From contig JAEKNN010000005.1 in assembly GCA_016464795.1 (NCBI GenBank), positions 65,483-129,482 on the forward strand: a stretch of 64,000 nt of DNA, written 5' to 3'. The DNA comes from Candidatus Amunia macphersoniae. Its GTDB lineage: Bacteria > Chloroflexota > Dormibacteria > Aeolococcales > Aeolococcaceae. Under the pieces are notes generated by a model. It saw only the letters and a program-made list of their open reading frames with translations. It made no database searches and was not told where the DNA came from. The translations under genes and the position numbers were made by a program. Positions 4,835 to 44,508 of this stretch are shown here, in pieces (positions within the stretch are counted from its first letter, which is position 1; every line of letters starts with the position of its first letter).

Positions 4835-5587
4835 ATGCCGACCTACGTCACCGACGGCGTCATCCTGCGTCGGGTCGACTACGGCGAGGCCGACCGGATC
4901 CTCACCGTGCTGACCCGGGACCACGGCAAGATCGGCGTCATCGCGCGCGGCGTCCGCAAGTCGGGCAGCCGGATGGCTGCCCACACCGACCTGTTCGCGC
5001 GCAGCCGCATGCAACTGGCTCGTGGTCGGGGTGAGCTGGATGTCCTGACTCAGGCGGAGACGCTGGGTCCGCACGCGCCGCTCGGTGATGCCCGCCGCGC
5101 CGCTTGCGCATCGGTGTGCGCGGAGCTGGCCGACCGCGTGCTGGAGAGCAACCACCCCGACGAGGAGACCTTCCAACTCGTCGCCGACGCGCTTGCCGAC
5201 TGCACCGACGACGACCGCGACCCACGCGCAGCCCTGGTCTGGTTGAGTCGCCGGATGATCGACCGCCTCGGCTACGCACCCCAGCTGTACCGGTGCGCGT
5301 CGTGCTCGACGATCCTTCCCCAGGTGAGTGCCTGGTTCAGCGCCGTGGCCGGCGGACTGCTCTGCGTGGGTTGTGCCGTCGCTGATCTTGGCGCTGTCGA
5401 GTGCTCCGTGCGGGTGATCAAGGTCCTCCGTGTCGCCGCAGACGGCGATGCCGCCCTGTACCGCCGCCTGCGTCTCGACGAGGCTGAGCTGGTCACCCTG
5501 GAGATGGTCGCGGAGCGTGAGCTTGCCCAACATCTCGACCGTCAGCTGCGCTCGCTCCCCGTGCTGCGGGCCATCGAGCGACGCTGA
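4835..5587 (+). CDS. recO: DNA repair protein RecO
   Basis: N-terminal OB-fold signature VILRRVDYGEADRILTVLTRDHGKIGVIARG. Internal zinc-finger CASCS...CVGC. Length is typical of RecO. Confidence 0.9.
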   Translation: MPTYVTDGVILRRVDYGEADRILTVLTRDHGKIGVIARGVRKSGSRMAAHTDLFARSRMQLARGRGELDVLTQAETLGPHAPLGDARRAACASVCAELADRVLESNHPDEETFQLVADALADCTDDDRDPRAALVWLSRRMIDRLGYAPQLYRCASCSTILPQVSAWFSAVAGGLLCVGCAVADLGAVECSVRVIKVLRVAADGDAALYRRLRLDEAELVTLEMVAERELAQHLDRQLRSLPVLRAIERR

Positions 5588-31449: not shown

Positions 31450-32631
31450 TCAAGGCAAGCCGGCCGTACCGATCACCTCTGCGATGGTGCCCAGAGACTC
31501 GCGCCACACCTGGTCGTCGATGATCAGCGGGGGCAGCAGGCGGATCACCGTTCGTCCGCCCCGCAGCACCAGGATGCCCCGCCGCTGCAGCTCGGCGATC
31601 AGCGGTGTCGCGGGCACGCGAAGGTCGATGCCGATCATCAGGCCGCGACCTCGCACCTCGCGGACGAGCGGCGCGGGGAGCGCGCCCAGGCTGTTCACGG
31701 CTTCTGAGCCCAGCTCGGCCACCCGCCGATGCAGCAGCGGGTCGGCGAGGATCCGCAGCGTCACCGAGCCGGCGGCGCACACCAGCGGGCTGCCGGCGAA
31801 GGTGCTGCCGTGCCCGCCTGTGGGCATCCTCGCACCGACTGCTTCAGTGCACCCCGTCACCGCCATGGGAAGTCCGTTGGCGATGCCCTTGCCCAGGCAG
31901 ACGATGTCGGGGATGACCCCGTCGTGGCTGCATGCCAGGATGGCGCCGGTGCGCAGCCCGGTCTGCACCTCGTCGGCGACCAGCAGCGCGCCCGCGGCCG
32001 TGCACCGCTGCCGCAGCCCAGCCATGTACCCCGAGCTGGGCACGCGAACGCCCGCCTCTCCCTGCAGGGGTTCGACGACGACCGCCGCCACGCTCTCGTC
32101 GAGCACTCCGTCGAGGGCGTCGAGGTCGTCGTAGGCGACGTGGTTGACGCCCGGGAGCAGCGGGCCGAACGGGTCGCGGTAGGCCGCACTCGCCGTCAGG
32201 CTGAGTGCACCGAGAGTCCTGCCGTGGTAGCCGCGGTGCATGGCGACGATGCGCTCGCGGCCGGTGGCGACCCGGGCCAGCTTGATCGCCACCTCCAACG
32301 ACTCGCTGCCGGAGTTGAGGAAGCACACCTGGGTCAGCGCCGCCGGCAGCAGCGACCCGAGCGCCTCCAGAAACTCACCGCGCACCGGGCTGTCGAACGA
32401 CTGGTGCGCGTTGGTGAGGGTCGCCGCCTGGGCGGTGATCGCCGCCGTCACCGCCGGATGCGCGTGGCCCAGCACGTTGACCCCATAGTTGCTGACAAGG
32501 TCGACATATTCACGGCCATCCCTGTCGACCAGCGTGCAACCGTGACCGCTGACCAGGCTGATGCCGCGGCCGGTGAGCAGCGCCATGGCACGCAGCCGTG
32601 GTTCGGTCGCGGCCCCAGCGGTGGCCGTCAT
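31450..32631 (-). CDS. lysJ: Class-III aminotransferase, [LysW]-aminoadipate semialdehyde / acetylornithine aminotransferase
   Basis: PLP-fold motifs (LVADEVQTGLRTG, CLGKGIANGLP) and VNHVAYDDLDAL. Last gene of the lysW operon. The start overlaps the lysZ stop. Confidence 0.85.
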   Translation of the reverse strand: MTATAGAATEPRLRAMALLTGRGISLVSGHGCTLVDRDGREYVDLVSNYGVNVLGHAHPAVTAAITAQAATLTNAHQSFDSPVRGEFLEALGSLLPAALTQVCFLNSGSESLEVAIKLARVATGRERIVAMHRGYHGRTLGALSLTASAAYRDPFGPLLPGVNHVAYDDLDALDGVLDESVAAVVVEPLQGEAGVRVPSSGYMAGLRQRCTAAGALLVADEVQTGLRTGAILACSHDGVIPDIVCLGKGIANGLPMAVTGCTEAVGARMPTGGHGSTFAGSPLVCAAGSVTLRILADPLLHRRVAELGSEAVNSLGALPAPLVREVRGRGLMIGIDLRVPATPLIAELQRRGILVLRGGRTVIRLLPPLIIDDQVWRESLGTIAEVIGTAGLP

Positions 32632-33512
32632 CACACCGAGACCGCCGTCCCCGCGGCCGCCGCGGCCTGCGGCGCTGCGCCCGACGTCGCCTCCGCCTCC
32701 ATTGCCGGCGCGGTGAACCACGTGCCCTCGCCGTCCAGTGCGCGGCACAGCGGCCGAGCTCCGCGCCCGTCGCAGAGGGCTACCGCATCGATCCCCGCGC
32801 GCAGCGCGCGCTCGACCGCCGCCAGCTTGACCCGGACGCGGCCGCGCGCCGAGCCAGCCAACCCGCCGAGATCCTCAAGAGACGCGCGCGGCAGTGTGCT
32901 CCCGGCGTCGTCGGGGTCGGCGAGGAAACCGGCGGTGTCCGAGAAGATGATCAGCCGCTCTGCACCGATGGCGATCGCCAGCTCGGCGGCAAGCCGGTCG
33001 CCATCGACGTTGATCGGGCTGCCGTCGTCGCCGAGCGCCGGCGGGCACAGCACCGGGGTGTGGCCGGCCTCGAGCAGCGAGGTCAGCACGGTCGTGTCGA
33101 CGCTCTCGATGCTGCCGGCGTGGTCGCCGTGCAGCATCAGCGTGCGGCCGTCCTCGCGGATGCGCAGGTCCGTCCTGCGGCGACCGCGAACCATCCCCGC
33201 GTCCATGGCAGCGAGCCCGATCGCCCGCACGTCCCTGGCCAACAACTGCTGCACCAGGCGCTTGTTGACCAGCCCGCAGTACGCCATCAGGAAGTGGTCC
33301 ATCGCTGCCGCGTCCGTGTAGCGGCTGCTCTCTCCCCGCGCGGAGGTGACCAACCGTGGCGGGTGGCCGAGCCGCCGGGCGAGCTCATCGAGCACGCGGT
33401 GAGCCCCGTGGACGATGACCAGCGGCCCCTGGTGGGCGGCGATGTCATCGAGGAGGGTGGTGGGGTCCTCGAGGCTGCCGCCGATCTTGACCACCAAGGG
33501 AGGACCGCTCAT
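32631..33512 (-). CDS. lysZ: Amino-acid kinase family, [LysW]-aminoadipate kinase / acetylglutamate kinase-like
   Basis: LVVKIGGS nucleotide-binding N-terminus, VIVHGAH, a C-terminal domain typical of ArgB/LysZ. ATGA overlap with lysY. Confidence 0.8.
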   Translation of the reverse strand: MSGPPLVVKIGGSLEDPTTLLDDIAAHQGPLVIVHGAHRVLDELARRLGHPPRLVTSARGESSRYTDAAAMDHFLMAYCGLVNKRLVQQLLARDVRAIGLAAMDAGMVRGRRRTDLRIREDGRTLMLHGDHAGSIESVDTTVLTSLLEAGHTPVLCPPALGDDGSPINVDGDRLAAELAIAIGAERLIIFSDTAGFLADPDDAGSTLPRASLEDLGGLAGSARGRVRVKLAAVERALRAGIDAVALCDGRGARPLCRALDGEGTWFTAPAMEAEATSGAAPQAAAAAGTAVSV

Positions 33513-34543
33513 ATTGGGTAGAGCCCGGTGAAGTCGAGGCCACAGCACTCGTCGATGCCCGCGTGCACGTTGAGCGCGTGCACCGCCTGGCCGGCGCTGC
33601 CCTTGCCCAGGTTGTCGATGGCGGCAAGCACGACGGCGCGCGGCGCCCAGGGGTCGCGCTCGAAGCCCACGTCGCAGATGTTGGTGCCCGACAGCAGCTT
33701 CGGCTCCGGATGACGGTGGAGTCCCTGCGCCTCATGGACGACGCGGACGAAGGGCTCGGAGGCAAATGCCTCGCGGAGGAGGGCGCGCAGCCGGCGATCG
33801 TCGACTGCGTCGTCGGCCAGCGGCACGTGGGCGGTGACCAGCACGCCGCGGACAGCTTCGACAGCGGTCACCGACAGTGCCACGTTGTGCAGGCCCGTCT
33901 CCTGGACGATCTCGGCTGTGTGCCGGTGCCCGGTCGGTGCGAATGAGCGCATGGTCCCGCTGCGGTGGGGATGATGCGAGGACCCGCCCGGCTGTGCGCC
34001 GGCCGCCGACGATCCCACCTTGGCGTCGACGACCAACTGCTGGGTGGTGTCGACGACCCCAGCCCGCGCCAGGGGCAGGAGGGCCAGGATCGCCGCCGTG
34101 GCGACGCAACCGCCGGTGGCGAGGAGGCCGGCGCTGCGCACGCGATCGCGGTCGACCTCGGGCAGCGCGTACACCGCCTGAGCGAGCAGCTCCGGGCGCG
34201 AGTGCTTGCGGCCATACCAGCGCGGGTAGTCAGCGGGGTTGCGGAGCCGGAAGTCTGCGGAGAGGTCGATGACCAGCGGCGCGTGCTCCGCGAGCGAGTC
34301 GATGAACGCTTCGGATTCACCGTGGGGCAGGGCGCTGAAGAGCACGTCGCACTCCGGCAGGTCCGAGCGCTGGGTGAAACGAAGCGATGTCCGGCCACGG
34401 AGCACCGGATGGGTGTGGTGGACGAACCGTCCGGCCAGGCGCTCGCTGCTGGCGCCGACGACCTCGACGTGCGGGTGCTGGATGAGCAACCGCAACAGCT
34501 CGCCGCCGGTGTACCCGGCGGCGCCGGCCACGGCGACATTCAT
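33509..34543 (-). CDS. lysY: [LysW]-aminoadipyl-phosphate reductase / N-acetyl-gamma-glutamyl-phosphate reductase-like
   Basis: MNVAVAGAAGYTGGELLRLL Rossmann N-terminus. Catalytic Cys block LLATGGCVATAAILALLPL. C-terminal GKGSAGQAVHALN. Confidence 0.88.
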   Translation of the reverse strand: MNVAVAGAAGYTGGELLRLLIQHPHVEVVGASSERLAGRFVHHTHPVLRGRTSLRFTQRSDLPECDVLFSALPHGESEAFIDSLAEHAPLVIDLSADFRLRNPADYPRWYGRKHSRPELLAQAVYALPEVDRDRVRSAGLLATGGCVATAAILALLPLARAGVVDTTQQLVVDAKVGSSAAGAQPGGSSHHPHRSGTMRSFAPTGHRHTAEIVQETGLHNVALSVTAVEAVRGVLVTAHVPLADDAVDDRRLRALLREAFASEPFVRVVHEAQGLHRHPEPKLLSGTNICDVGFERDPWAPRAVVLAAIDNLGKGSAGQAVHALNVHAGIDECCGLDFTGLYPI

Positions 34544-34548
34544 CCTGC

Positions 34549-35661
34549 TCAACTGCCAGCTCCGCGCTGCGCTGGGGCACCGGGCCCGAACTCCCGGCTC
34601 GCCCCTGATGACAATGACCTCAGGGCCGTCTCGAGAACGTCGGCTCCGCGGCGCAGCTCGTCGATGTCGATGGACTCGTGCGGCGTGTGGTCGAGGCTGC
34701 AGTCGCCGGGGCCGTACACGGCCGCGTCACACCCCCACCGGGGGAGTACGACGTTGAGGTCCGAGGTCCCGGTCTTGCTGGTGTACCGCGGTCTTCCGCC
34801 GCTGGCGGCGACGCCTCTGGCCAGCGCACGCGCCACCGCGTTGCCGCGAGAGACGGCCACAGCGTCGCAGGCCGACTCGACCTGCACGCGCGCCTCCTTC
34901 ATCAGCGCCGCGACGCGCGCTGCGATGTCCTCGACGGCGACGCCCATGGGCATGCGCAGCTCGATCCCCGCCACCGCATGCTCGACGGTGCCGTTGTCGT
35001 TTGACCTCAGGGTGTTGACCCGAACCTGCACGCGGTCGACGGCGCGCTCGCCACCGGTCGGCAGCGAGCGCTGCAGCTCGGCAAGCCCCGCCACCAGACG
35101 GTCGGCGGCACCGGCGTGGGGCCCCGCGTGGTGCGCGGACTGGCGAGTGACAGTGGCCGTCAACCGCACGCAGCCGCGGTAGCCGGTGGTGACCGTGTCC
35201 CAGCCACTGGGCTCGAGGACGATGAGGTGTGACGGCGGCTTGCGGTCGCGCAGATACCGCGCGCCCAACGACGGACCCTCTTCGTCACAGGCGGCGATGA
35301 CTGTGATCCGCCGTCCGATGGGGCGTGGCAAGCGCGACACCGCCGCCAGAGCCGCTGCCAGCGGCCCCTTGGCGTCGACAGCCCCGCGTCCGTGCAGCCT
35401 GCCGTCCTGCTCGCGCACCTCGATGTGTCCGGGCACCGTGTCGAGGTGGCCGAGCAGCACGATCTCGTCCTCAATGGGCCCGTCGCCCCAGATCATCACC
35501 AGGTTGCCGGCCCCGTCGCGCTGCGCGTGATATCCGGCCTCCCGTGCACGGTGCAGCAACCGCGTCGCGGCCGCGTCCGTGTCTCCCGTCACCGAGGGGA
35601 TGCGCAGCAGCTCGTCGAGCAGGGTCAACGGGTCGAGCGCGAGGGTGACCGCCGCCGTCAT
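34549..35661 (-). CDS. lysK: M20-family metallohydrolase, [LysW]-lysine hydrolase (ArgE/LysK-like)
   Basis: LLGHLDTVP metal-binding His/Asp block, ACDEEG, and a dimerisation domain. The start, inferred at MTAAVTLALD, overlaps the lysX stop (ATGA). The longer tool ORF is an upstream extension that overlaps lysX. Confidence 0.78.
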   Translation of the reverse strand: MTAAVTLALDPLTLLDELLRIPSVTGDTDAAATRLLHRAREAGYHAQRDGAGNLVMIWGDGPIEDEIVLLGHLDTVPGHIEVREQDGRLHGRGAVDAKGPLAAALAAVSRLPRPIGRRITVIAACDEEGPSLGARYLRDRKPPSHLIVLEPSGWDTVTTGYRGCVRLTATVTRQSAHHAGPHAGAADRLVAGLAELQRSLPTGGERAVDRVQVRVNTLRSNDNGTVEHAVAGIELRMPMGVAVEDIAARVAALMKEARVQVESACDAVAVSRGNAVARALARGVAASGGRPRYTSKTGTSDLNVVLPRWGCDAAVYGPGDCSLDHTPHESIDIDELRRGADVLETALRSLSSGASREFGPGAPAQRGAGS

Positions 35662-36545
35662 CCGCTCAGCCCTGCGAGAACGCCGTCCGAAGCTGCCTGC
35701 CCAACCCTGCCTCCCACCTGGTCGCGAACGTGGGCGAGCGTGTACTCGACGATGCGCCCCGCGATGTCGACACCGGTCACCGCCTCGGAGTTGCGGAACT
35801 CCATGGAGTGGTTGACCTCGCTGACCAGCAGGCGCTTGCCATCCTCGAGCAGGTCGACGGCGAGCAGCCCTCCTCCCACCGCGCCGGCGGCGCGCAGTGC
35901 AACATCGGCGATAGCTGCGCTGACGGGGCGGTTGCGGGTGCTCGCGCCCCTGGCGGTGTTGGTGATCCAGTGCTCGGAGAGCCTGTCGACAGCGCAGATC
36001 ACCTCGCCGCCGGCAACGAACGCACGGATGTCGCGGCCCGGCTTGGCGACGTGTTCCTGCACGTAGTACACGTGATGTGCCGGCGAACCGAGGGTTGCCT
36101 TGTGGTCGAGCAGCGCCTCGGCGGCGTCGCGGTCGTTGACCCGCGCCAGGAGACGCCCCCACGACCCCACCGGTGGCTTGATTACCGCCGGATAGCCGAC
36201 GGTCTCGACGGCCTTCAGCCCACCCTCGACCGAGAAGGCCACCACTGTTCGCGGCACCGGAACCCCGGCGGCGGCGAGCAGCGCGGTGGTCACCACCTTG
36301 TCTGCACAGTTGGCGACCGCGCGGTGCTGGTTCACGGTGATGACGCCGCGACTCTCCAGCAGCTGGAGGACCGCCAGGGCATGGGACTGTTGCAGGCAAC
36401 GGTCCAGGACCACGTCCCATCGCGGCGTGTCCGCGTGCGTGTCCACCAGCAGATGGCGCACGTCGACCACCTCGACGGCCACCCCACGTGCCGAGAACGC
36501 CGCCAGGATCAGCTTCTCCTCGACACGCACGCGTGACACCAGCAT
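35658..36545 (-). CDS. lysX: RimK-type ATP-grasp ligase, alpha-aminoadipate--LysW ligase
   Basis: ATP-grasp blocks (GYPAVIKPPVGSWGRLLARV, LAVDLLEDGKRLLVSEVNHSMEF). ATG at 36545 (MLVSRVRVEEK). Located immediately downstream of lysW. Confidence 0.85.
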   Translation of the reverse strand: MLVSRVRVEEKLILAAFSARGVAVEVVDVRHLLVDTHADTPRWDVVLDRCLQQSHALAVLQLLESRGVITVNQHRAVANCADKVVTTALLAAAGVPVPRTVVAFSVEGGLKAVETVGYPAVIKPPVGSWGRLLARVNDRDAAEALLDHKATLGSPAHHVYYVQEHVAKPGRDIRAFVAGGEVICAVDRLSEHWITNTARGASTRNRPVSAAIADVALRAAGAVGGGLLAVDLLEDGKRLLVSEVNHSMEFRNSEAVTGVDIAGRIVEYTLAHVRDQVGGRVGQAASDGVLAGLSG

Positions 36546-36633
36546 GGCGACGCGCGGGTCACTCACCCCAGTCCTCCTCACGCACGCGTGACACCAGCAT
36601 GGCGACGCGCGGGTCACTCACCCCAGTCCTCCT
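36524..36633. repeat. Perfect 55-bp direct tandem duplication (2 copies) spanning the lysW 3' end / lysX 5' end junction
   Basis: The 55-nt unit CACGCACGCGTGACACCAGCATGGCGACGCGCGGGTCACTCACCCCAGTCCTCCT occupies 36524-36578 and repeats exactly at 36579-36633. Confidence 0.85.
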
Positions 36634-36781
36634 CCTCGGGCGGGGCGAGCACCAGCACCGGCGGTTGCAGAGCGGTCACCTCCAGGTCGGCTCCACAGTC
36701 GGGGCAGGGGACAACCTCACCCACCACCGTCCGCTCGTCGAGCGGAACGGCGGCGTCGCACTCCGGGCAGGGCATTGTCAT
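36614..36781 (-). CDS. lysW: LysW amino-group carrier protein (zinc-ribbon, C-terminal EDWGE tail)
   Basis: MTMPCPECDAAVPLDERTVVGEVVPCPDCGADLEVTALQPPVLVLAPPEEEDWGE. Features are the CxxC...CxxC ribbon and the hallmark C-terminal EDWGE. Confidence 0.9.
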   Translation of the reverse strand: MTMPCPECDAAVPLDERTVVGEVVPCPDCGADLEVTALQPPVLVLAPPEEEDWGE

Positions 36782-37278
36782 GCCCGGCTCTCCTCGAGGG
36801 CCGCCCACCCGGAGTCGTGAATCAGCTCGACCAGCCCGCCCGCGTCGGCGATACGCACCGCCAGCTGGGACGGGGCCTCGCCGTCGAAGCGGCGTCCGCC
36901 GCTGATCACAGTGCCGGTGCGAAGGTCGACCTCCACGCTGTCGCCATCGACGATGGCGGCCGCAGCTGCCGGGCAGCGAATCACCGGCAGGCCAATGTTG
37001 ACGGCGTTGCGCGCGAAGATGCGCGCGAAGCTGGCAGCAACCACTGCCACCACACCTGTCTCGCGGATCGACACCGGGGCGTGCTCACGCGAGGAGCCGC
37101 AACCGAAGTTGCGGCCCGCGATGATGACGTCGCCAGGTTGCACGCCGGCGGCGAAGTCCGGCCGCGCCTCGCAGAGGCAGGCGTGCGCCAGCGTCTTGGG
37201 GTCGGTGGTGAGGTTGAACCGGCCGGGCATGACCGCGTCGGTGGAGACGCCATCGCCAAGCACCCATGCACGTCCCAT
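36778..37278 (-). CDS. hacB: Homoaconitase / 3-isopropylmalate dehydratase small subunit (LeuD-like)
   Basis: MGRAWVLGDGVSTDAVMPGRF...IIAGRNFGCGSSREHAP is the LeuD fold signature. The true gene is about 166 aa, and the longer tool ORF is an upstream extension. It overlaps the lysW start. Confidence 0.85.
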   Translation of the reverse strand: MGRAWVLGDGVSTDAVMPGRFNLTTDPKTLAHACLCEARPDFAAGVQPGDVIIAGRNFGCGSSREHAPVSIRETGVVAVVAASFARIFARNAVNIGLPVIRCPAAAAAIVDGDSVEVDLRTGTVISGGRRFDGEAPSQLAVRIADAGGLVELIHDSGWAALEESRA

Positions 37279-38513
37279 CAGCGAGCACTCCGTGGATCGG
37301 TGATGCAGCCCGCGACAGCTGTGGCGGCCGCCACAGCGGGGCTGGTCAGGTAGATCTCCGCGTGTGGGCTGCCCATGCGCCCGGGGTAGTTGCGATTGCT
37401 GGTGGAGACGACACGTTCGCCGGCGGCGACCACGCCGTGTTGCCGGCCGAGACACGGTCCGCAGCCCGGATTCATCACCAGCGCACCCGCCTCGACGATG
37501 GTCTCGATCCAACCCCGGCGCAGTGCCTCTGTGTAGATGCGCCGCGACGCCGGCACCACCACCGTGCGGGTGTTCGGATGCACGGTGTGCCCCGACAGAT
37601 ACCGCGCGATCACCTCCATGTCCTCGAGACGGCCGTTGGTGCAGCTGCCGATGTAGACCTCGTCGATCGGTGTGCCCGCGACGTCGGCGATGTCGTGAAC
37701 GTTGTCGGCGGCCGGGGGCATGGCGATCTGCGGTTGCAGGTGAGTGACATCGACGTGCAGCGTGTCCGCGTAGCGCGGTGAGCGCGGCTGCGGGATGGGC
37801 ACGCCGTCGATCGGCGTGGTCCCCTCCAGGGTGGTCTCGTCGACCTCGCACAGCCCCGTCTTGCCGCCCATGTCTGCGGCCATGTTGGCGAGGGTGAGGC
37901 GCTGGTCGAGGGTCATCCGTGCCACGGTCTCGCCACCCCATTCGACGGCCATGTAGTCGGCACCGTCGCCGCCGATGCTCCCGAGCACGTGCAGGGCCAC
38001 GTCCTTGGCGGTCAGCGGCGCCCGCAGCTCTCCGGTGACCTCGACGCGCAGTGTCTGCGGAACCCTGAACCAGGTGCGCCCGGTGGCCAGGATCACCCCC
38101 ACGTCGGTGCTGCCCATGCCTGTCGAGAAGCAGCCCAGGCCGCCGTAGGTGGTGCTGTGCGAGTCGGCGCCGACGACGATCCCGCCCGGCCGTGCGTAGC
38201 CGCGCTCGACCATGATGATGTGGCAGATCCCCTCCGCGAAGAGGTTGCGGACCTGATGATCTGCGGCGAACCTGCGGATGCGCTGGTGCAGCTCGGCCGC
38301 GGCCACGGTTGCCGCCGGCATGACGTGGTCGAAGACCAGCACCACCCGCTGCGGGTCGTGCAGTGGCATCTCCATGCGTTCGAATGCCTCGATTGCCAGC
38401 GGGGCGGTGACGTCGTGGGCGAAGGCGCAATCGACAGGCGCGACCACTGTGTCGCCCGCGCTCACTGAACGCCCGAGCCGGTTGCCGATGATCTCCTCGA
38501 CGAGGGTTCCCAT
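37278..38513 (-). CDS. hacA: Homoaconitase / 3-isopropylmalate dehydratase large subunit (aconitase family, LeuC-like)
   Basis: Aconitase-family Cys ligands (GADSHSTTYGGLG, IGSCTNGRLED, NPGCGPCLG). The start is inferred at MGTLVEEIIG. Confidence 0.85.
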   Translation of the reverse strand: MGTLVEEIIGNRLGRSVSAGDTVVAPVDCAFAHDVTAPLAIEAFERMEMPLHDPQRVVLVFDHVMPAATVAAAELHQRIRRFAADHQVRNLFAEGICHIIMVERGYARPGGIVVGADSHSTTYGGLGCFSTGMGSTDVGVILATGRTWFRVPQTLRVEVTGELRAPLTAKDVALHVLGSIGGDGADYMAVEWGGETVARMTLDQRLTLANMAADMGGKTGLCEVDETTLEGTTPIDGVPIPQPRSPRYADTLHVDVTHLQPQIAMPPAADNVHDIADVAGTPIDEVYIGSCTNGRLEDMEVIARYLSGHTVHPNTRTVVVPASRRIYTEALRRGWIETIVEAGALVMNPGCGPCLGRQHGVVAAGERVVSTSNRNYPGRMGSPHAEIYLTSPAVAAATAVAGCITDPRSAR

Positions 38514-38517
38514 CTCC

Positions 38518-39645
38518 TCAGGCCCCCGCCGACGCGCGCAGCAGCGCGTCGACCTCGTCGTCGCGCAGGAGCCGTTCGCCCGCATGGCGCTTGACCTCGG
38601 CGGTGACGCGGCGCAGCCAGGTGTCGTCACCGGCAATTCCCAGCGCGGCCGCCCGCTGGCGCACCGCGTGGCGCCCCACCAGTTGATGGTTGACGAGCAG
38701 GCGGCGCTCGATGCCGAAGCGCTCTGGGGCAAAGGGCTCGTAGCTGCGCGGGTCTCCGAGCACCGCCTTGGTGTGCATCCCGGCCTTGTGGTGGAACGCG
38801 TAGGGGGAGGTGATCGGAGCGGTGAGCGGGATGTCGACGTCGAGGATCCCCGCGACCATGGCATCGAGCGCAGCCAGCCGTTCCAGTGCGTAGTGGTCAA
38901 CCAGCTCGGGCTGCACGGTGTGCAGCCGGGCGATCAACCCGGAGAGCGGGACGATGCCATTGCGCTCACCGATGCCCAGGACCGTGGTGTCGATGTGCGT
39001 GGCACCCGCCTGCAGCGCGGCCAGCGCGTTGGCCACCGCACAGCCGTTGTCGTTGTGGGCATGGAACTCGATGTCGCAGTCGACAGCATCGCGGAGCTGG
39101 GTGATCAGGGCGGTGACCTGCGCGGGTGTGGCGATGCCGACAGTGTCGGCGAGGCCGACGCGATCGACCCCGAGCGCGGCAACGGCGGCGAGGATGCGGA
39201 GCAGGTCGGCCGGCTCGGTGCGGAAGGAGTCCTCGCAGCTGAAACGCACCTCGAGCCCGGCGGCGCGGACCAAGGCGATGCAGTCGGCCGCAGCCACCAC
39301 GATGTCGTCGAGCTCCAACCCGTGGGAGTTAGACCGCAACCAGGACGAGGTGCCGAAGAGCAGGTCGACACCGCCCACACCGCAGTCGATGGCGAGGAGC
39401 ACGTCGTCGACAACGCAGCGTGTGTGCGTGAGCACTATGGCGCGCAGCGGCAGGGCTGCGATCTCGCGGCAGGACCTTTGCGCGGTGGGTGACGCCACCG
39501 GCGTGGTCAGCTCGATGTGCTCGACCCCGAAGTCGTCGACCGCGTGGGCGATCTGCCGGCGTTGGGCGAGGGTGAAGTGGGCGCCGGCGAACTGTTCACC
39601 CTCACGGAGGGTGGACTCGATGATGGAGAGGCGGCGGATTGGCAT
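38518..39645 (-). CDS. hcs: Homocitrate synthase (short LeuA/NifV-family enzyme without the LeuA regulatory domain)
   Basis: IIESTLREGEQ N-terminal motif of the DRE-TIM metallolyase family, plus HAHNDNG and ERNGI motifs. It is 375 aa and heads the lysW operon. Confidence 0.8.
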   Translation of the reverse strand: MPIRRLSIIESTLREGEQFAGAHFTLAQRRQIAHAVDDFGVEHIELTTPVASPTAQRSCREIAALPLRAIVLTHTRCVVDDVLLAIDCGVGGVDLLFGTSSWLRSNSHGLELDDIVVAAADCIALVRAAGLEVRFSCEDSFRTEPADLLRILAAVAALGVDRVGLADTVGIATPAQVTALITQLRDAVDCDIEFHAHNDNGCAVANALAALQAGATHIDTTVLGIGERNGIVPLSGLIARLHTVQPELVDHYALERLAALDAMVAGILDVDIPLTAPITSPYAFHHKAGMHTKAVLGDPRSYEPFAPERFGIERRLLVNHQLVGRHAVRQRAAALGIAGDDTWLRRVTAEVKRHAGERLLRDDEVDALLRASAGA

Positions 39646-39874: not shown

Positions 39875-40666
39875 TCAAACCACTGGCGGTCGCGATCTCA
39901 GCTGGCGGTATGCCAGAGCGCCAACCCCACTCAGTGCCATGAGCACCAGCGCGATCACCAGCAGCGATGACGCGCCGCCACCCTTGTCGATGGCGCCGAC
40001 GACTCCAGAGGGGGAGGGGGAGGAGGACGCCAGGGAGCTCGGGGTGACCAGGGCGACCGGCCCGGTGTCCGAGGGGGAGGGCGTGTCGCTGGGCGTGGGG
40101 GCCGGCGTCGGCGTGGGCGACGGTGGCGCGGTCGGCGGCGGCCCATTGCCTGGTGGGAGGGAGAACACCAAGGGAGTGGATGCTGGCGACGGTGTGGCCG
40201 CCGTGACGGAGACGTCTCCATGCAGGGCGGCGTAGCCGTCAGGGACCGAGTAGTAGACGTACGTGCCGGGGCTTGTGAAGGTGAAGGTGTATGACCGGCT
40301 CGGCGGGATGTCGGCCGTCGAACCGAAGCCGGTGTCGCCGCCTGTTCCACCGTCCTGCCCGGCGCATGGTTGGGGCGTGGGTTTGGCCTGCGCCTTGGTG
40401 GGGCATCGCGTGACCGTGTGCACCGCTCCCGTGTCGTTGGTCCAGGTCACGGTCGTCCCTGACGCGACCGTCAGTGAAGGCGGCTGGTAGCAATAGCTGC
40501 CCAGCGATTTGACGTCACCGGCGCAGGTCGTGCTGGGCCCGGCGACGGCGATCTTCACGCTCGCCGATTCGGCGGCCAGCGACGAACGCGGGCTCAGCAG
40601 CACGGCAGCGGCGACGATCAGCGAAGCCAGAGCCGCAAGCCCTGCCGCTCGGCGACGATGCGTCAT
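39875..40666 (-). CDS. Secreted cupredoxin-like domain protein with a Pro/Ser/Thr-rich linker and a C-terminal membrane anchor
   Basis: Signal peptide. GTTVTWTNDTGAVHTVT beta-sandwich motif, but no evident Cys/His/Met copper ligand set. PTPAPTPSDTPSPS linker. C-terminal GGGASSLLVIALVLMALSGVGALAYRQLRSR. Confidence 0.5.
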   Translation of the reverse strand: MTHRRRAAGLAALASLIVAAAVLLSPRSSLAAESASVKIAVAGPSTTCAGDVKSLGSYCYQPPSLTVASGTTVTWTNDTGAVHTVTRCPTKAQAKPTPQPCAGQDGGTGGDTGFGSTADIPPSRSYTFTFTSPGTYVYYSVPDGYAALHGDVSVTAATPSPASTPLVFSLPPGNGPPPTAPPSPTPTPAPTPSDTPSPSDTGPVALVTPSSLASSSPSPSGVVGAIDKGGGASSLLVIALVLMALSGVGALAYRQLRSRPPVV

Positions 40667-40675
40667 CAGCCGCCT

Positions 40676-40963
40676 TCAGGCCGCCTCGACCGTGACGCCC
40701 TTCCAGAAGGCGACGTGGTCGGCGATCTCCTTGGCTGCGTCCTTCGGTTCTGGGTAATACCAGGCCGCGTCGGTGTTGACGTCGTCACCGATCACGATGT
40801 CGTAATAGCTGGCCTCGCCCTTCCATGGGCAGGTGCTGTGCGTGGAGCTGGGCAGCAGCAGCTCGGTCTTCACCGCTGCCGGCGGAAAATAGTGGTTGCC
40901 TTCGACGACGACTGTGTCGTCGCCCTCGGCGATGACCGTGCCGTTCCATGTTGCGCGTGGCAT
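40676..40963 (-). CDS. DUF427 domain protein
   Basis: VVVEGNHYFPP and AWYYPEPK motifs are characteristic of DUF427. 95 aa. Confidence 0.7.
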   Translation of the reverse strand: MPRATWNGTVIAEGDDTVVVEGNHYFPPAAVKTELLLPSSTHSTCPWKGEASYYDIVIGDDVNTDAAWYYPEPKDAAKEIADHVAFWKGVTVEAA

Positions 40964-41132
40964 TGAGCGTCTCCTGTCGCGTGACGGGCTGGTTCCGTTG
41001 TCGGTTGTTGCCCGGCGGCCTGGCCGGTGGCCTGGTGGTCTCGCGGCTCGGTTGACGTCCCGGCCGAGGGGTCATCTTGCACTGCAGGCCATCAGGACGG
41101 CAGGGCCGCCTCACCGCGCTGGCCAACCCGGC

Positions 41133-41861
41133 TCACGACGGCAGCGCCGCCATCACCGCGCTGGTCACCGCGTTGGTCCCGGCAGTCCCGCCGAGGTCGG
41201 GCGTCAACACGCCCGCGGCGATCACCGAGTCGACAGCGGCCCGAACCTCGGCTGCCGCCCGTGGCTGGTCGAGCGAGTGCTCCAGCAAAAGACCTGCGCT
41301 GAGAATCGCGCCGATTGGATTGGCGATGCCACGGCCGGCAATGTCCGGGGCGCTTCCGTGAACCGGCTCGTACAGGGCTGGTCGCGAAGCGCCACCCCCT
41401 GCGTCGGCGGGCAGGCTCGCCGACGGGAGCAGACCGATGGAGCCGGACAGGGCGGCGGCCTCGTCGCTGAGGATGTCGCCGAACAGGTTCGCGGCGAGCA
41501 CGACGTCGAGTTCGAGCGGTCGTTGCACCAGGCGCAGGGCGAAGCTGTCCACGAGGGCGTGCTCGAGGGCCACCTTCGGATGATGGTCTGCGACCTCGGT
41601 GACCACCTCTCGCCAGAAGCGACTGCTGGTGGCGCCGAAGAGGATGGCGCGCGCCTGCTTGCACGAGGCGACGGTCTGCTCGGAGATCGGTGCGCCCTCT
41701 GCCCGGATGGCCGCGCCACCGATGTGGCGGTGCTCGACGCGCAGCGGGATGTCGCGCGCTGCGCAGACGGCCAGCAACACCCGTTCGGCGGCATCGACGA
41801 CCTCGGGGCCGACACCGTCGCCGGGCAGGATCACGATGGCGGCGGGCGGCGCGGCGGTCAT
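41133..41861 (-). pseudogene. Isocitrate/isopropylmalate/homoisocitrate dehydrogenase-family gene with a large in-frame internal deletion (probably inactive)
   Basis: N-terminal [13 protein letters not shown] and ILFGA blocks, and C-terminal [26 protein letters not shown] and [20 protein letters not shown] blocks, are intact. Aligned to E. coli LeuB, about 120-150 central residues are absent. Those residues include the substrate-binding Arg residues, the catalytic Lys/Tyr and the first metal Asp. The ORF is 242 aa versus a typical ~340-360. Confidence 0.6.
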
Positions 41862-42029: not shown

Positions 42030-43271
42030 TCAGGATCCTTCTGGGTGCGGCTCCGTGATCCTGGCGACGAACAGTGGCACCCCTGTGGCCGTGTCCTCGA
42101 CGACGAACAGGAACGGCCTGTCCACTGTCATACGGATGGGCTGCCGGATCAGCGCGGCGCCGGTTTCCACAGAGATGCCGGTGGCCGCGGACGCCTTGGT
42201 ACCGGCTTCGTCCACAGACATCCACGCCTTGTGCACTGCCCAGGCCACGCGCAGGTCGCCCGGTGCTCCAGCGATGCCGGAGAGGTCGGGGAACCGAAAG
42301 AGATCAGCGAGGCCAAGAGCGCCCAGCGATGACCTGAGGTCCGTTGACGTCTCGGCGGCGAACCGCGGCATGGCCAGCTGAACGGCGTGAGATGACAGCT
42401 GCGAGGTGATCCCCGGCAACCTGCCCAGAAGAGTCAGCGGGTCGGCGGCGGTGTCGGCGGACAGAACCACGAGGGCATCGAGACCGCCGGTCGCGTAGGG
42501 GAGGCGCACCGCCTGCGCATCGGCGGTCTGAACGTACTCCATGCTCGTGACAAGGTTCATGGTGGGCACTGACCGAGGCCCAGCCGGCGTGGTGAATGGC
42601 GCGTCCTGGGTGTCTCGCTGCGGGAACGGGGTCACCCACTGCGCGGTGAGCGCGACAGCGTTGGCGAGCACCAGGCGTGTGGTGTCGCTGATCGTTCCAG
42701 GTGCGAAGAGGTTGTCGATGCGGTTGCCGGTGTGGCCCAACACCCACTGGTTGATGGTCTGGCGTGCGCCGTCAGGGTCAGATATGAAGTCGAGCGCTTG
42801 CGGTGCCGCGCCGGCATCGGTCAGCAACTGGCGATAGCCGCTGACGATCTGATAACTCTGCTGCAGCCATGCTGCCGAGGCCATCGCCACGGTGCCGTCA
42901 GCGGTGCCGAGATGCTGTTCGAGGCCGACCAGGTCGGCGATGAGCTGACGTGATGAGCCGGCGGCGTGGAGCGCTCGGGTGAGCTGCGCGGAGGTCTGTC
43001 CCCGCGCGCCCGGCGCGAGGAGGCTGAGGGCGTCGAAGATGCTGGCAGGGGAGACGACCAGGTTGCCGCTGTGTTCTGCTGCGAGCGCTGCGACCAGGTC
43101 CTGTGCGAAGGCTCGCTCGCTGGCGGCGGCGGCCTCGGTGTGCGAGAGCGCGAGGAGCTGCGCAGTGGGCGCGGGCCGTCCGCTACCGAGGACTGTGGTG
43201 GCGGCACTGCCGCTGAGCGCGACCGACAGTGCGGCCGCCAGCCCGGCGGCGACGAGCGGCAGCCTCTTCAT
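42030..43271 (-). CDS. Serpin (serine/cysteine protease inhibitor) with a signal peptide
   Basis: Serpin signature blocks NAVALTAQWVTPF and MTVDRPFLFVVED. Hinge region DEAGTKASAATG. Signal peptide MKRLPLVAAGLAAALSVALSGSAA. Confidence 0.85.
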   Translation of the reverse strand: MKRLPLVAAGLAAALSVALSGSAATTVLGSGRPAPTAQLLALSHTEAAAASERAFAQDLVAALAAEHSGNLVVSPASIFDALSLLAPGARGQTSAQLTRALHAAGSSRQLIADLVGLEQHLGTADGTVAMASAAWLQQSYQIVSGYRQLLTDAGAAPQALDFISDPDGARQTINQWVLGHTGNRIDNLFAPGTISDTTRLVLANAVALTAQWVTPFPQRDTQDAPFTTPAGPRSVPTMNLVTSMEYVQTADAQAVRLPYATGGLDALVVLSADTAADPLTLLGRLPGITSQLSSHAVQLAMPRFAAETSTDLRSSLGALGLADLFRFPDLSGIAGAPGDLRVAWAVHKAWMSVDEAGTKASAATGISVETGAALIRQPIRMTVDRPFLFVVEDTATGVPLFVARITEPHPEGS

Positions 43272-43653
43272 GGGTGTGACCGAGGCTAGCACCGGTCACG
43301 GTGCGGCGCATCACCCCAGTGGGTGACCAGCACGGCTGTTCGCCTCAATCATCGTGCCGGTCGTCTCGCCGCACGTGACGCCGCTTCAGATGGCGGCAAG
43401 GAAGCTGGTGAGACAACGCTGCCAGCGATCTGGCTGTTCCAGGTGCAGGTCGCGGCCGGCGCCGGGTATCTCCACCACCGGCCACGTCGTAAGCCAGCGC
43501 ATCACCTGATCGCGACACGCCGGATCGGGCTCGGGCGTTGCCTCCACCACCACACCGTGCTGTCGCGGTGGAAGTGGTCGATGCACGCCAGCCGCACAGC
43601 CTCGCGCTCAGCGTGACGCCAGAGGTTCGCCTCGGCGCCCTCGGCCGGCGCGG

Positions 43654-44508
43654 TCAGGCTGAGTCGTCCTCAGCACGCTGGCTCGCCGATCCGGTGTGGC
43701 GCACCTTCAGGGGCGGACCGCCTGGGGCTGCCTGGATCGTCCAGAAGTCGGCGGCGAGGCCCCCGTCCAGCATGTACGCGTACGGCATGTACCCGTAGCC
43801 CGCGTCGCCCCACCCCGCGCCCCAGGAGTTGCGGATCGTGAACGCCTGACGTGCATCGTCGTAGCCGACGCAGACCACCGCGTGACCACCGACAGGGCTC
43901 TCCGACGGCTGCGGCAGCGGGATGATCCCGGTGGTGGCGACATCGGTCGCCTCGAATGAGCTGAACACCGTGAACCCGAAGACGAATGGGAACTCGGACG
44001 CCAGGCACGTCTTCAGCTGCACCAGTGACTGAGTGACCCGCTGGTAGCTGCCAACGCTCTCGTGCAGCGCGTCGGTGTAGGCCTGTTGCGGTGGGCGCTC
44101 GGCGAACTTGGTGACGTCGTACGGCCAGTCGGACTCCGGGCAGACGCCGTCGGCCGCGATCACCTTGATGCCGTCGCGCAGCTGCGCACCACTGTCGCTG
44201 CTGACGGTGCCCTCCACGTCGCGCTCGTTGTAATAGATGAAGAGGCGCGAGGGCGTCCAGCTCGGCGAGGTCCCGGTGCGGATCTCGTCGTACTCGAGCG
44301 CCCCGGCAATGGCGTTGGCAGTACACGAGCCGAGCTGGCCCTGGTCATACACCCCGGGACATTGCCGGCGCAGGTCGACCGATGTGGGGAGCTGAGCCGA
44401 GGCCAGGGGAGGAGCCAGCCACTGGCGGTCACGGTGGTCGGGGAGGTCGCGGACCCACCCGTATCGGGCAGTCTTCACGACCACGGATTCTGCGCGCTCG
44501 CCGGCCAT
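43654..44508 (-). CDS. Papain-like (C1A family) cysteine peptidase, no obvious signal peptide
   Basis: Gln/Cys block QGQLGSCTANA, His block GGHAVVCVGYDD, Asn block NSWGAGWGDAGYGYM. Confidence 0.8.
   Translation of the reverse strand: MAGERAESVVVKTARYGWVRDLPDHRDRQWLAPPLASAQLPTSVDLRRQCPGVYDQGQLGSCTANAIAGALEYDEIRTGTSPSWTPSRLFIYYNERDVEGTVSSDSGAQLRDGIKVIAADGVCPESDWPYDVTKFAERPPQQAYTDALHESVGSYQRVTQSLVQLKTCLASEFPFVFGFTVFSSFEATDVATTGIIPLPQPSESPVGGHAVVCVGYDDARQAFTIRNSWGAGWGDAGYGYMPYAYMLDGGLAADFWTIQAAPGGPPLKVRHTGSASQRAEDDSA

Follow-up and report, generated by a model that had tools for sequence, protein, structure and literature searches.

Candidatus Amunia macphersoniae, a bacterium of soil, is known from metagenomes alone. 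The stretch of its DNA analysed here (64,000 nucleotides, 68.9% G+C, hereafter the window) carries an α-aminoadipate (LysW-type) lysine cluster, and beside this cluster lies a gene of the β-decarboxylating dehydrogenase superfamily that encodes only 242 amino acids. The locus raises the question of whether this gene is a pseudogene, a fragment kept for another role, one allele among others or a mistake in the contig, and of how the homoisocitrate step of lysine synthesis would then be supplied. We favour a recent, lineage-specific deletion of 363 bp that abolished function and is in frame by chance, which would make the gene a young pseudogene; the probability of this reading is put at roughly 0.85. 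The features of the locus are listed in Table 1.

Table 1. Features of the window around the truncated dehydrogenase gene and the adjoining lysine cluster.
Feature	Position	Strand	Remarks
Peptidase C1, papain family	43654-44508		284 aa
α/β-hydrolase gene remnants	43359..43553	(-)	74 and 93 bp
Bacterial serpin	42030-43271		413 aa
Truncated Iso_dh/LeuB-family ORF	41133..41861	(-)	242 aa; MBJ7608010.1, JF887_01065; ATG start
N-terminal remnant of the ORF	41631..41861	(-)	aa 1-77, from the GDGVGPEV nucleotide-binding start to ILFGA
C-terminal remnant of the ORF	41133..41630	(-)	aa 78-242 and stop; holds metal Asp D105, D129 and D133
DUF427 gene	40676-40963	(-)	between dehydrogenase gene and HCS, as in L001
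Cupredoxin-like gene	39875-40666	(-)	between dehydrogenase gene and HCS, as in L001
Homocitrate synthase (HCS)	38518..39645	(-)	375 aa, intact
Homoaconitase large subunit	37278-38513	(-)	411 aa, intact
Homoaconitase small subunit	36778-37278	(-)	166 aa, intact
LysW	36614-36781	(-)	
LysX	35658-36566	(-)	
LysK	34549-35661	(-)	
LysY	33509-34543	(-)	
LysZ	32631-33512	(-)	
LysJ	31450-32631	(-)	

The Truncated Gene and the Extent of the Deletion

The product of the truncated gene is annotated as a "hypothetical protein" at NCBI and as "3-isopropylmalate dehydrogenase" in UniRef, which gives a MAG of Candidatus Amunia macphersoniae (Dormibacterota, Aeolococcales) as its source, and it forms a singleton cluster in a search of a collection of 5.8 billion protein clusters. 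Its membership of the family is clear, as it scores 243.5 bits (E = 4.9e-72) against the Pfam domain Iso_dh (PF00180), for which the gathering cut-off is 27 bits. The match is nevertheless broken into two stretches instead of running continuously over the 348-position domain, the C-terminal stretch aligning amino acids 79-235 with profile positions 193-347. The best NCBIfam match is leuB (TIGR00169), where the ORF reaches 243.7 bits and falls below the cut-off of 353.2, whereas the intact protein of the closest relative reaches 423.5 bits.

This closest relative (P0002) has 363 amino acids, is 95-96% identical to the 242-aa ORF and is encoded on a Logan contig of run SRR22405878 (L001). Aligned with it, the ORF of the window shows a single gap that corresponds to P0002 residues 78-198, and the two genes differ at the DNA level by one gap of 363 bp (121 codons), with the rest about 96% identical. 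The junction lies between positions 41631 and 41630 (±1 nt) and has a microhomology of 1 nt. The preliminary description of this locus, made from the sequence by eye, had proposed that some 120-150 central residues were lost in frame and that ILFGA is joined directly to a downstream block. Both proposals hold: the pairwise alignment with P0002, of the kind it suggested for sizing the loss, gives one clean internal gap of 121 residues, at the low end of the estimate, and ILFGA runs straight into TSSRFW. Only the divisibility of 363 by 3 keeps the reading frame open, and since the deletion introduces neither a frameshift nor a stop codon, annotation pipelines call the truncated gene a protein. 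A split gene with its missing part encoded elsewhere was also considered and is ruled out within the whole 64-kb window, where searches with the deleted residues 78-198 (tblastn and blastn) returned chance-level matches only.

A separate small difference concerns the end of the gene. The relative's contig carries a 42-bp tandem duplication (L001 positions 5488-5575) of the last 27 bp of its Iso_dh gene, including the stop codon, and a diverged third repeat of that motif lies downstream in both that contig and the window (about 41090-41130).

The Junction in Separately Assembled Contigs

The 242-aa protein itself had no exact match in the contig index, and contigs covering the locus were found instead through exact look-up of neighbouring proteins of the window. 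One Logan contig of run SRR31090145 (L088) is 100% identical to window positions 45063-41456, without a mismatch in 3,608 bp, and crosses both the junction and the three other deletions described below. A second contig of the same run (L086) is 100% identical to positions 41484-36605, and a third, from SRR24198227, matches positions 39790-37261. The run SRR31090145 may be the read set of the MAG or come from the same site, so that its agreement with the window excludes an artefact of the assembler and does not represent an independent population.

The deletion is not an artefact of MAG assembly. If it were an assembly or sequencing error, the genome would hold a full-length gene and the contig would wrongly skip 363 bp. 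Mis-joins can occur in MAG contigs, four deletions are clustered here within 2.4 kb, and the junction was not found in the JGI metagenome contigs, either as an exact 30-mer or with a degenerate protein-level pattern. Such an error is nonetheless very improbable, given the mismatch-free passage of a separately assembled contig through all four deletions. The window contains no N bases, which also speaks against the sequencing gap that the preliminary description had named as a possible source of error, and no full-length protein more than 96% identical was found in a collection of 15 billion proteins. In addition, direct repeats are absent from the breakpoints, which show microhomology of 1-4 nt only; this rules out a repeat-mediated deletion and leaves no repeat able to collapse the assembly graph.

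A second alternative accepts the deletion as real and places it in one allele that coexists with an intact one, in which case the species as a whole would not be deficient. The junction has been seen in one MAG and one additional run only, and the Logan contigs break inside the gene, between window positions 41456 and 41484. This break cannot be ascribed to k-mers common with the organism's own LeuB gene, a cause that was considered and rejected as the longest word shared by the two genes is 14 nt. However, the break falls within the universally conserved FGDILSDEA motif, which is common to other organisms in a metagenome, and 147 bp separate it from the junction. An intact allele of the same strain was present in none of the assemblies searched, and a polymorphism of this kind is considered unlikely.

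Residues Lost and Retained

Five residues that are invariant in an alignment of 44 homologues, namely R100, R110, R138, Y145 and K194 in P0002 numbering, all lie within the gap. From the spacing of the motifs, we take them to be the equivalents of R94, R104, R132, Y139 and K185 of the isopropylmalate dehydrogenase (IPMDH) of T. thermophilus, that is, the triad of substrate-binding Arg residues and the catalytic Tyr/Lys pair. The 242-aa ORF consequently lacks five residues that a competent β-decarboxylating dehydrogenase requires, and the possibility left by the preliminary description, that a full catalytic core was present and had been missed in a manual alignment, does not hold. That description was correct in placing the Arg triad and the Tyr/Lys pair in the missing region but not in counting the first metal-binding Asp among the losses. 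All three metal Asp residues are present, D105 in LVDSF and D129 and D133 in NLFGDILSD, equivalent to D226, D250 and D254 of P0002 and presumably to D217, D241 and D245 of the T. thermophilus IPMDH, with D105/D226 assigned to D217 by motif spacing. The C-terminal remnant also keeps a ten-residue NAD-loop motif and a further stretch of ten residues. A further change was found next to the metal-binding motif, where the Glu of ENLFGD (E245) has given way to Ala in the window protein (A124, codon 41490-41492). The 44 intact homologues, drawn from both paralogue types, all have Glu here, and the substitution may reflect constraint that was relaxed once the deletion had occurred.

Structure prediction with AF2 gave a confident model for intact P0002 (pLDDT 92.4, pTM 0.92), in which the deleted part comprises the strands 105-113, 133-139, 149-152, 159-162 and 188-193, including those of the dimer arm, together with four helices. 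For the truncated protein, the model has a pLDDT of 81.6 and a pTM of 0.76, with high confidence for residues 1-77 and 180-242 and values of 44-73 for residues 111-170, although AF2 is no measure of stability and the drop in pLDDT is merely suggestive. Judging from the residues lost, the 242-aa product would be unable to catalyse the reaction, and it most likely does not fold properly.

Distribution of the Short Form and Fate of the Remnant

The deletion is confined to the Amunia lineage of the window. The other 119 best matches are 330-417 amino acids long or cut at their ends only, and none has an internal gap. A conserved short isoform was considered and rejected, as the other short matches (P0075, P0097, P0106 and P0039) are truncated at the N-terminus and not internally deleted. 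Neither the 8,000 homologues scored nor the 16 Dormibacterota lysine-cluster loci included another protein shortened in this way, and the Dormibacterota matches in species-representative genomes, with identities of at most 77%, all cover P0002 residues from about 5 to 361. The syntenic relative with 96% identity lacks the disruption, as is expected of a pseudogene, whose lesion should be absent from close relatives.

Two readings of the remnant had been offered beforehand, a decaying pseudogene and a repurposed non-catalytic fragment, of which the first is the better supported: the deletion occurs in this lineage only, five invariant residues are lost, the short form is not conserved and an intact LeuB is present in the same MAG. 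Within this first reading, the word "decaying" is only weakly borne out. The remnant has a dN/dS of 0.44 (13 nonsynonymous and 11 synonymous changes) against 0.08-0.40 in ten neighbouring genes, a difference that is not significant (Fisher p = 0.28) and so does not demonstrate decay after the deletion. The deletion looks young, with too little time for decay to become visible.

With the ORF, the start codon and the upstream region intact, a product may still be made. It could be argued that the 242-aa protein is kept for a non-catalytic role, such as pairing with LeuB or binding NAD or metal: the ORF is open from its original start and still encodes the three metal Asp, the NAD-loop motif and the helices that follow D105, and AF2 remains confident on both ends of the protein. 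Against this role, chance alone gives an in-frame outcome in one third of deletions, no other short form was found among the homologues and loci searched, and Ala stands at a position where the homologues invariably have Glu. AF2 gives low confidence for the central part of the truncated model, and the same kind of event destroyed neighbouring genes. A retained function of this sort is scarcely credible. The more specific proposal, that the remnant is expressed and pairs with or modulates LeuB through its metal Asp, NAD loop and interface helices, LeuB having taken over the homoisocitrate step, would be an outside chance at best. Read instead as the product of a loss-of-function deletion, the gene is an ordinary young pseudogene, with nothing in it to surprise a specialist.

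Deletions in the Neighbouring Genes

Comparison with the relative's contig revealed three further deletions in the window, of 274, 273 and about 690 bp, located 1.7-2.4 kb from the one in the dehydrogenase gene. In the relative, two genes, for an α/β-hydrolase and a GNAT acetyltransferase, stand between those for peptidase C1 and the serpin; in the window the hydrolase gene is reduced to two remnants and the GNAT gene is wholly gone. The four deletions thus lie within 2.4 kb, the divergence of this lineage from the relative being only about 4%, and no comparable deletion was found in the other 12 kb compared between the two contigs. Two of the neighbouring deletions have cleanly defined junctions, with microhomologies of 1 nt and 4 nt. 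The minimal microhomology and the clustering of similar deletions point to illegitimate, microhomology-mediated end joining or template switching as the probable mechanism, as opposed to repeat recombination, and the four deletions could possibly stem from one complex event.

Bacterial pseudogenes commonly form and erode by deletion, a tendency known as deletional bias. The dehydrogenase gene resembles such deletion-formed pseudogenes in its lineage-specific internal deletion, minimal microhomology, loss of essential residues and similarly eroded neighbours, but it differs from the typical case in that the deletion is in frame and leaves neither a frameshift nor a stop codon. The clustered microhomology deletions offer a glimpse of gene loss in the Amunia lineage.

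The eroded region is flanked by the serpin and peptidase C1 genes. In more distant Dormibacterota (L004, L005 and L008) the peptidase C1 gene directly adjoins Iso_dh, which indicates that the serpin, hydrolase and GNAT genes are a variable insert in this clade.

The Two Dehydrogenase Paralogues and the Homoisocitrate Step

The order of the genes is the same in the window and in the relative's contig: peptidase C1, serpin, Iso_dh, DUF427, cupredoxin-like, HCS, homoaconitase large and small subunits, LysW, LysX, LysK, LysY, LysZ and LysJ. The genes from HCS to LysJ are all open and 95-98% identical to those of the relative, and the genes of the α-aminoadipate cluster have dN/dS values of 0.18-0.40. 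Across 16 Dormibacterota loci, a dehydrogenase paralogue lies directly upstream of the HCS-homoaconitase-LysWXKYZJ genes, with a short extra ORF between them in a few. A second paralogue was found at 11 loci in an ilvD/ilvBN/ilvC/leuA/leuCD/leuB/cimA operon. The two types differ in a loop motif, which reads RCEAGLL(R/G)LR in the leu-operon type and RPG(S/A)A..(R/G)LR in the lysine-cluster type, and which we take to be the loop that forms the isopropyl-group pocket in IPMDH. This loop may determine whether the enzyme is specific for homoisocitrate or for isopropylmalate.

The conservation of the lysine-cluster paralogue next to the cluster across the phylum suggests that the intact enzyme is presumably a homoisocitrate dehydrogenase (HICDH), an assignment based on gene position and the difference in motif. 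Both intact paralogue types pass the LeuB equivalog model, and neither passes any HICDH model; P0002 scores 239 bits against AksF2 (cut-off 540), 239 against iso_homocit_dh (680) and 213 against AksF (500). Likewise, the solved structures nearest to P0002 are those of IPMDHs (E 1e-95 to 2e-102), whereas the HICDH of Thermus is found at E = 4e-56. From these scores, the Dormibacterota lysine-cluster enzyme would appear to have been recruited independently out of the LeuB branch, and published phylogenies indicate that HICDHs arose more than once within the superfamily (PMC7511310).

The closest known system by sequence is LeuB itself (TIGR00169; structures 1IPD, 2Y3Z and 1CM7), to the same family as which P0002 belongs, with a score above the model's cut-off. 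The protein of the window departs from LeuB by the absence of 121 residues and a score below that cut-off, and its gene adjoins an α-aminoadipate lysine cluster and not an ilv-leu operon. Its intact orthologues at lysine clusters have RPG(S/A)A.. in place of the E-x-G-L-L of RCEAGLL, and a separate canonical LeuB is encoded in the same MAG. The HICDH of T. thermophilus (1X0L, 3ASJ) belongs to the same superfamily, has the same expected role in the pathway and, as in the window and the 16 related loci, is encoded with HCS, homoaconitase and LysW/X/K/Y/Z/J. It is, however, distant from P0002 in sequence, with the E value given above against about 1e-97 for IPMDHs, and P0002 reaches no NCBIfam HICDH cut-off; activity of the Dormibacterota enzyme on homoisocitrate is suggested by the position of the gene and its motif. 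A precedent for one enzyme serving both leucine and lysine synthesis is provided by the broad-specificity β-decarboxylating dehydrogenases known from Pyrococcus and Thermococcus (PH1722; PDB 5HN3 series), and a single gene set has been proposed for both pathways in P. horikoshii (PMC1963480). Those organisms make do with one gene set by design; the situation here differs in that two specialised paralogues existed, one of them recently destroyed.

The search for an intact LeuB elsewhere in the genome, recommended in the preliminary description, was successful. A protein of 360 amino acids (P0111, MBJ7608841.1) scores 441.4 bits on the LeuB model (cut-off 353.2), and its gene shares 4 nt with the end of one whose product matches LeuD. 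It carries the same species taxid as the window protein, and its accession lies 831 from that of the latter, which places both in the same MAG submission; a protein identical to it is present in run SRR31090145, which also holds the contigs identical to the window. An intact canonical LeuB is thus encoded in the same MAG. LeuB or another route would then supply the missing homoisocitrate step, or else the pathway would now be broken. Alternatively, lysine could come from a DAP pathway encoded outside the window or from uptake, or the cluster could be retained for a shared role involving arginine.

The locus constitutes a small natural experiment: the dehydrogenase belonging to an α-aminoadipate cluster is lost, the other genes of that cluster are intact, and a LeuB paralogue is still there. 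Should lysine still be made through this cluster, LeuB must be promiscuous, which would echo the shared enzymes proposed for Pyrococcus. The case also calls for caution in the automated reconstruction of pathways, which for this Antarctic-soil species would count the homoisocitrate step as present with the dedicated enzyme dead.

Minor Changes within the Lysine Cluster

Several small differences from the relative were observed in the genes of the cluster. A 55-bp tandem duplication (positions 36517-36634; 2.1 copies, 96% match) spans the stop codon of LysW and the start of LysX, with LysW ending in the first copy and LysX starting in the second. Both genes are intact, and their original 8-nt overlap, of the kind associated with translational coupling, has become a gap of 47 nt in the window. 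The Logan contig covering this side of the locus (L086) ends within the same repeat. At the stop codon of LysX (35658-35700), a 1-bp insertion relative to the contig of the relative adds 12 codons (302 against 290 amino acids) and creates a 4-nt overlap with the start of LysK. LysZ has 293 amino acids against 301 in the relative as a result of an in-frame 24-bp deletion near the C-terminus, and is otherwise intact.
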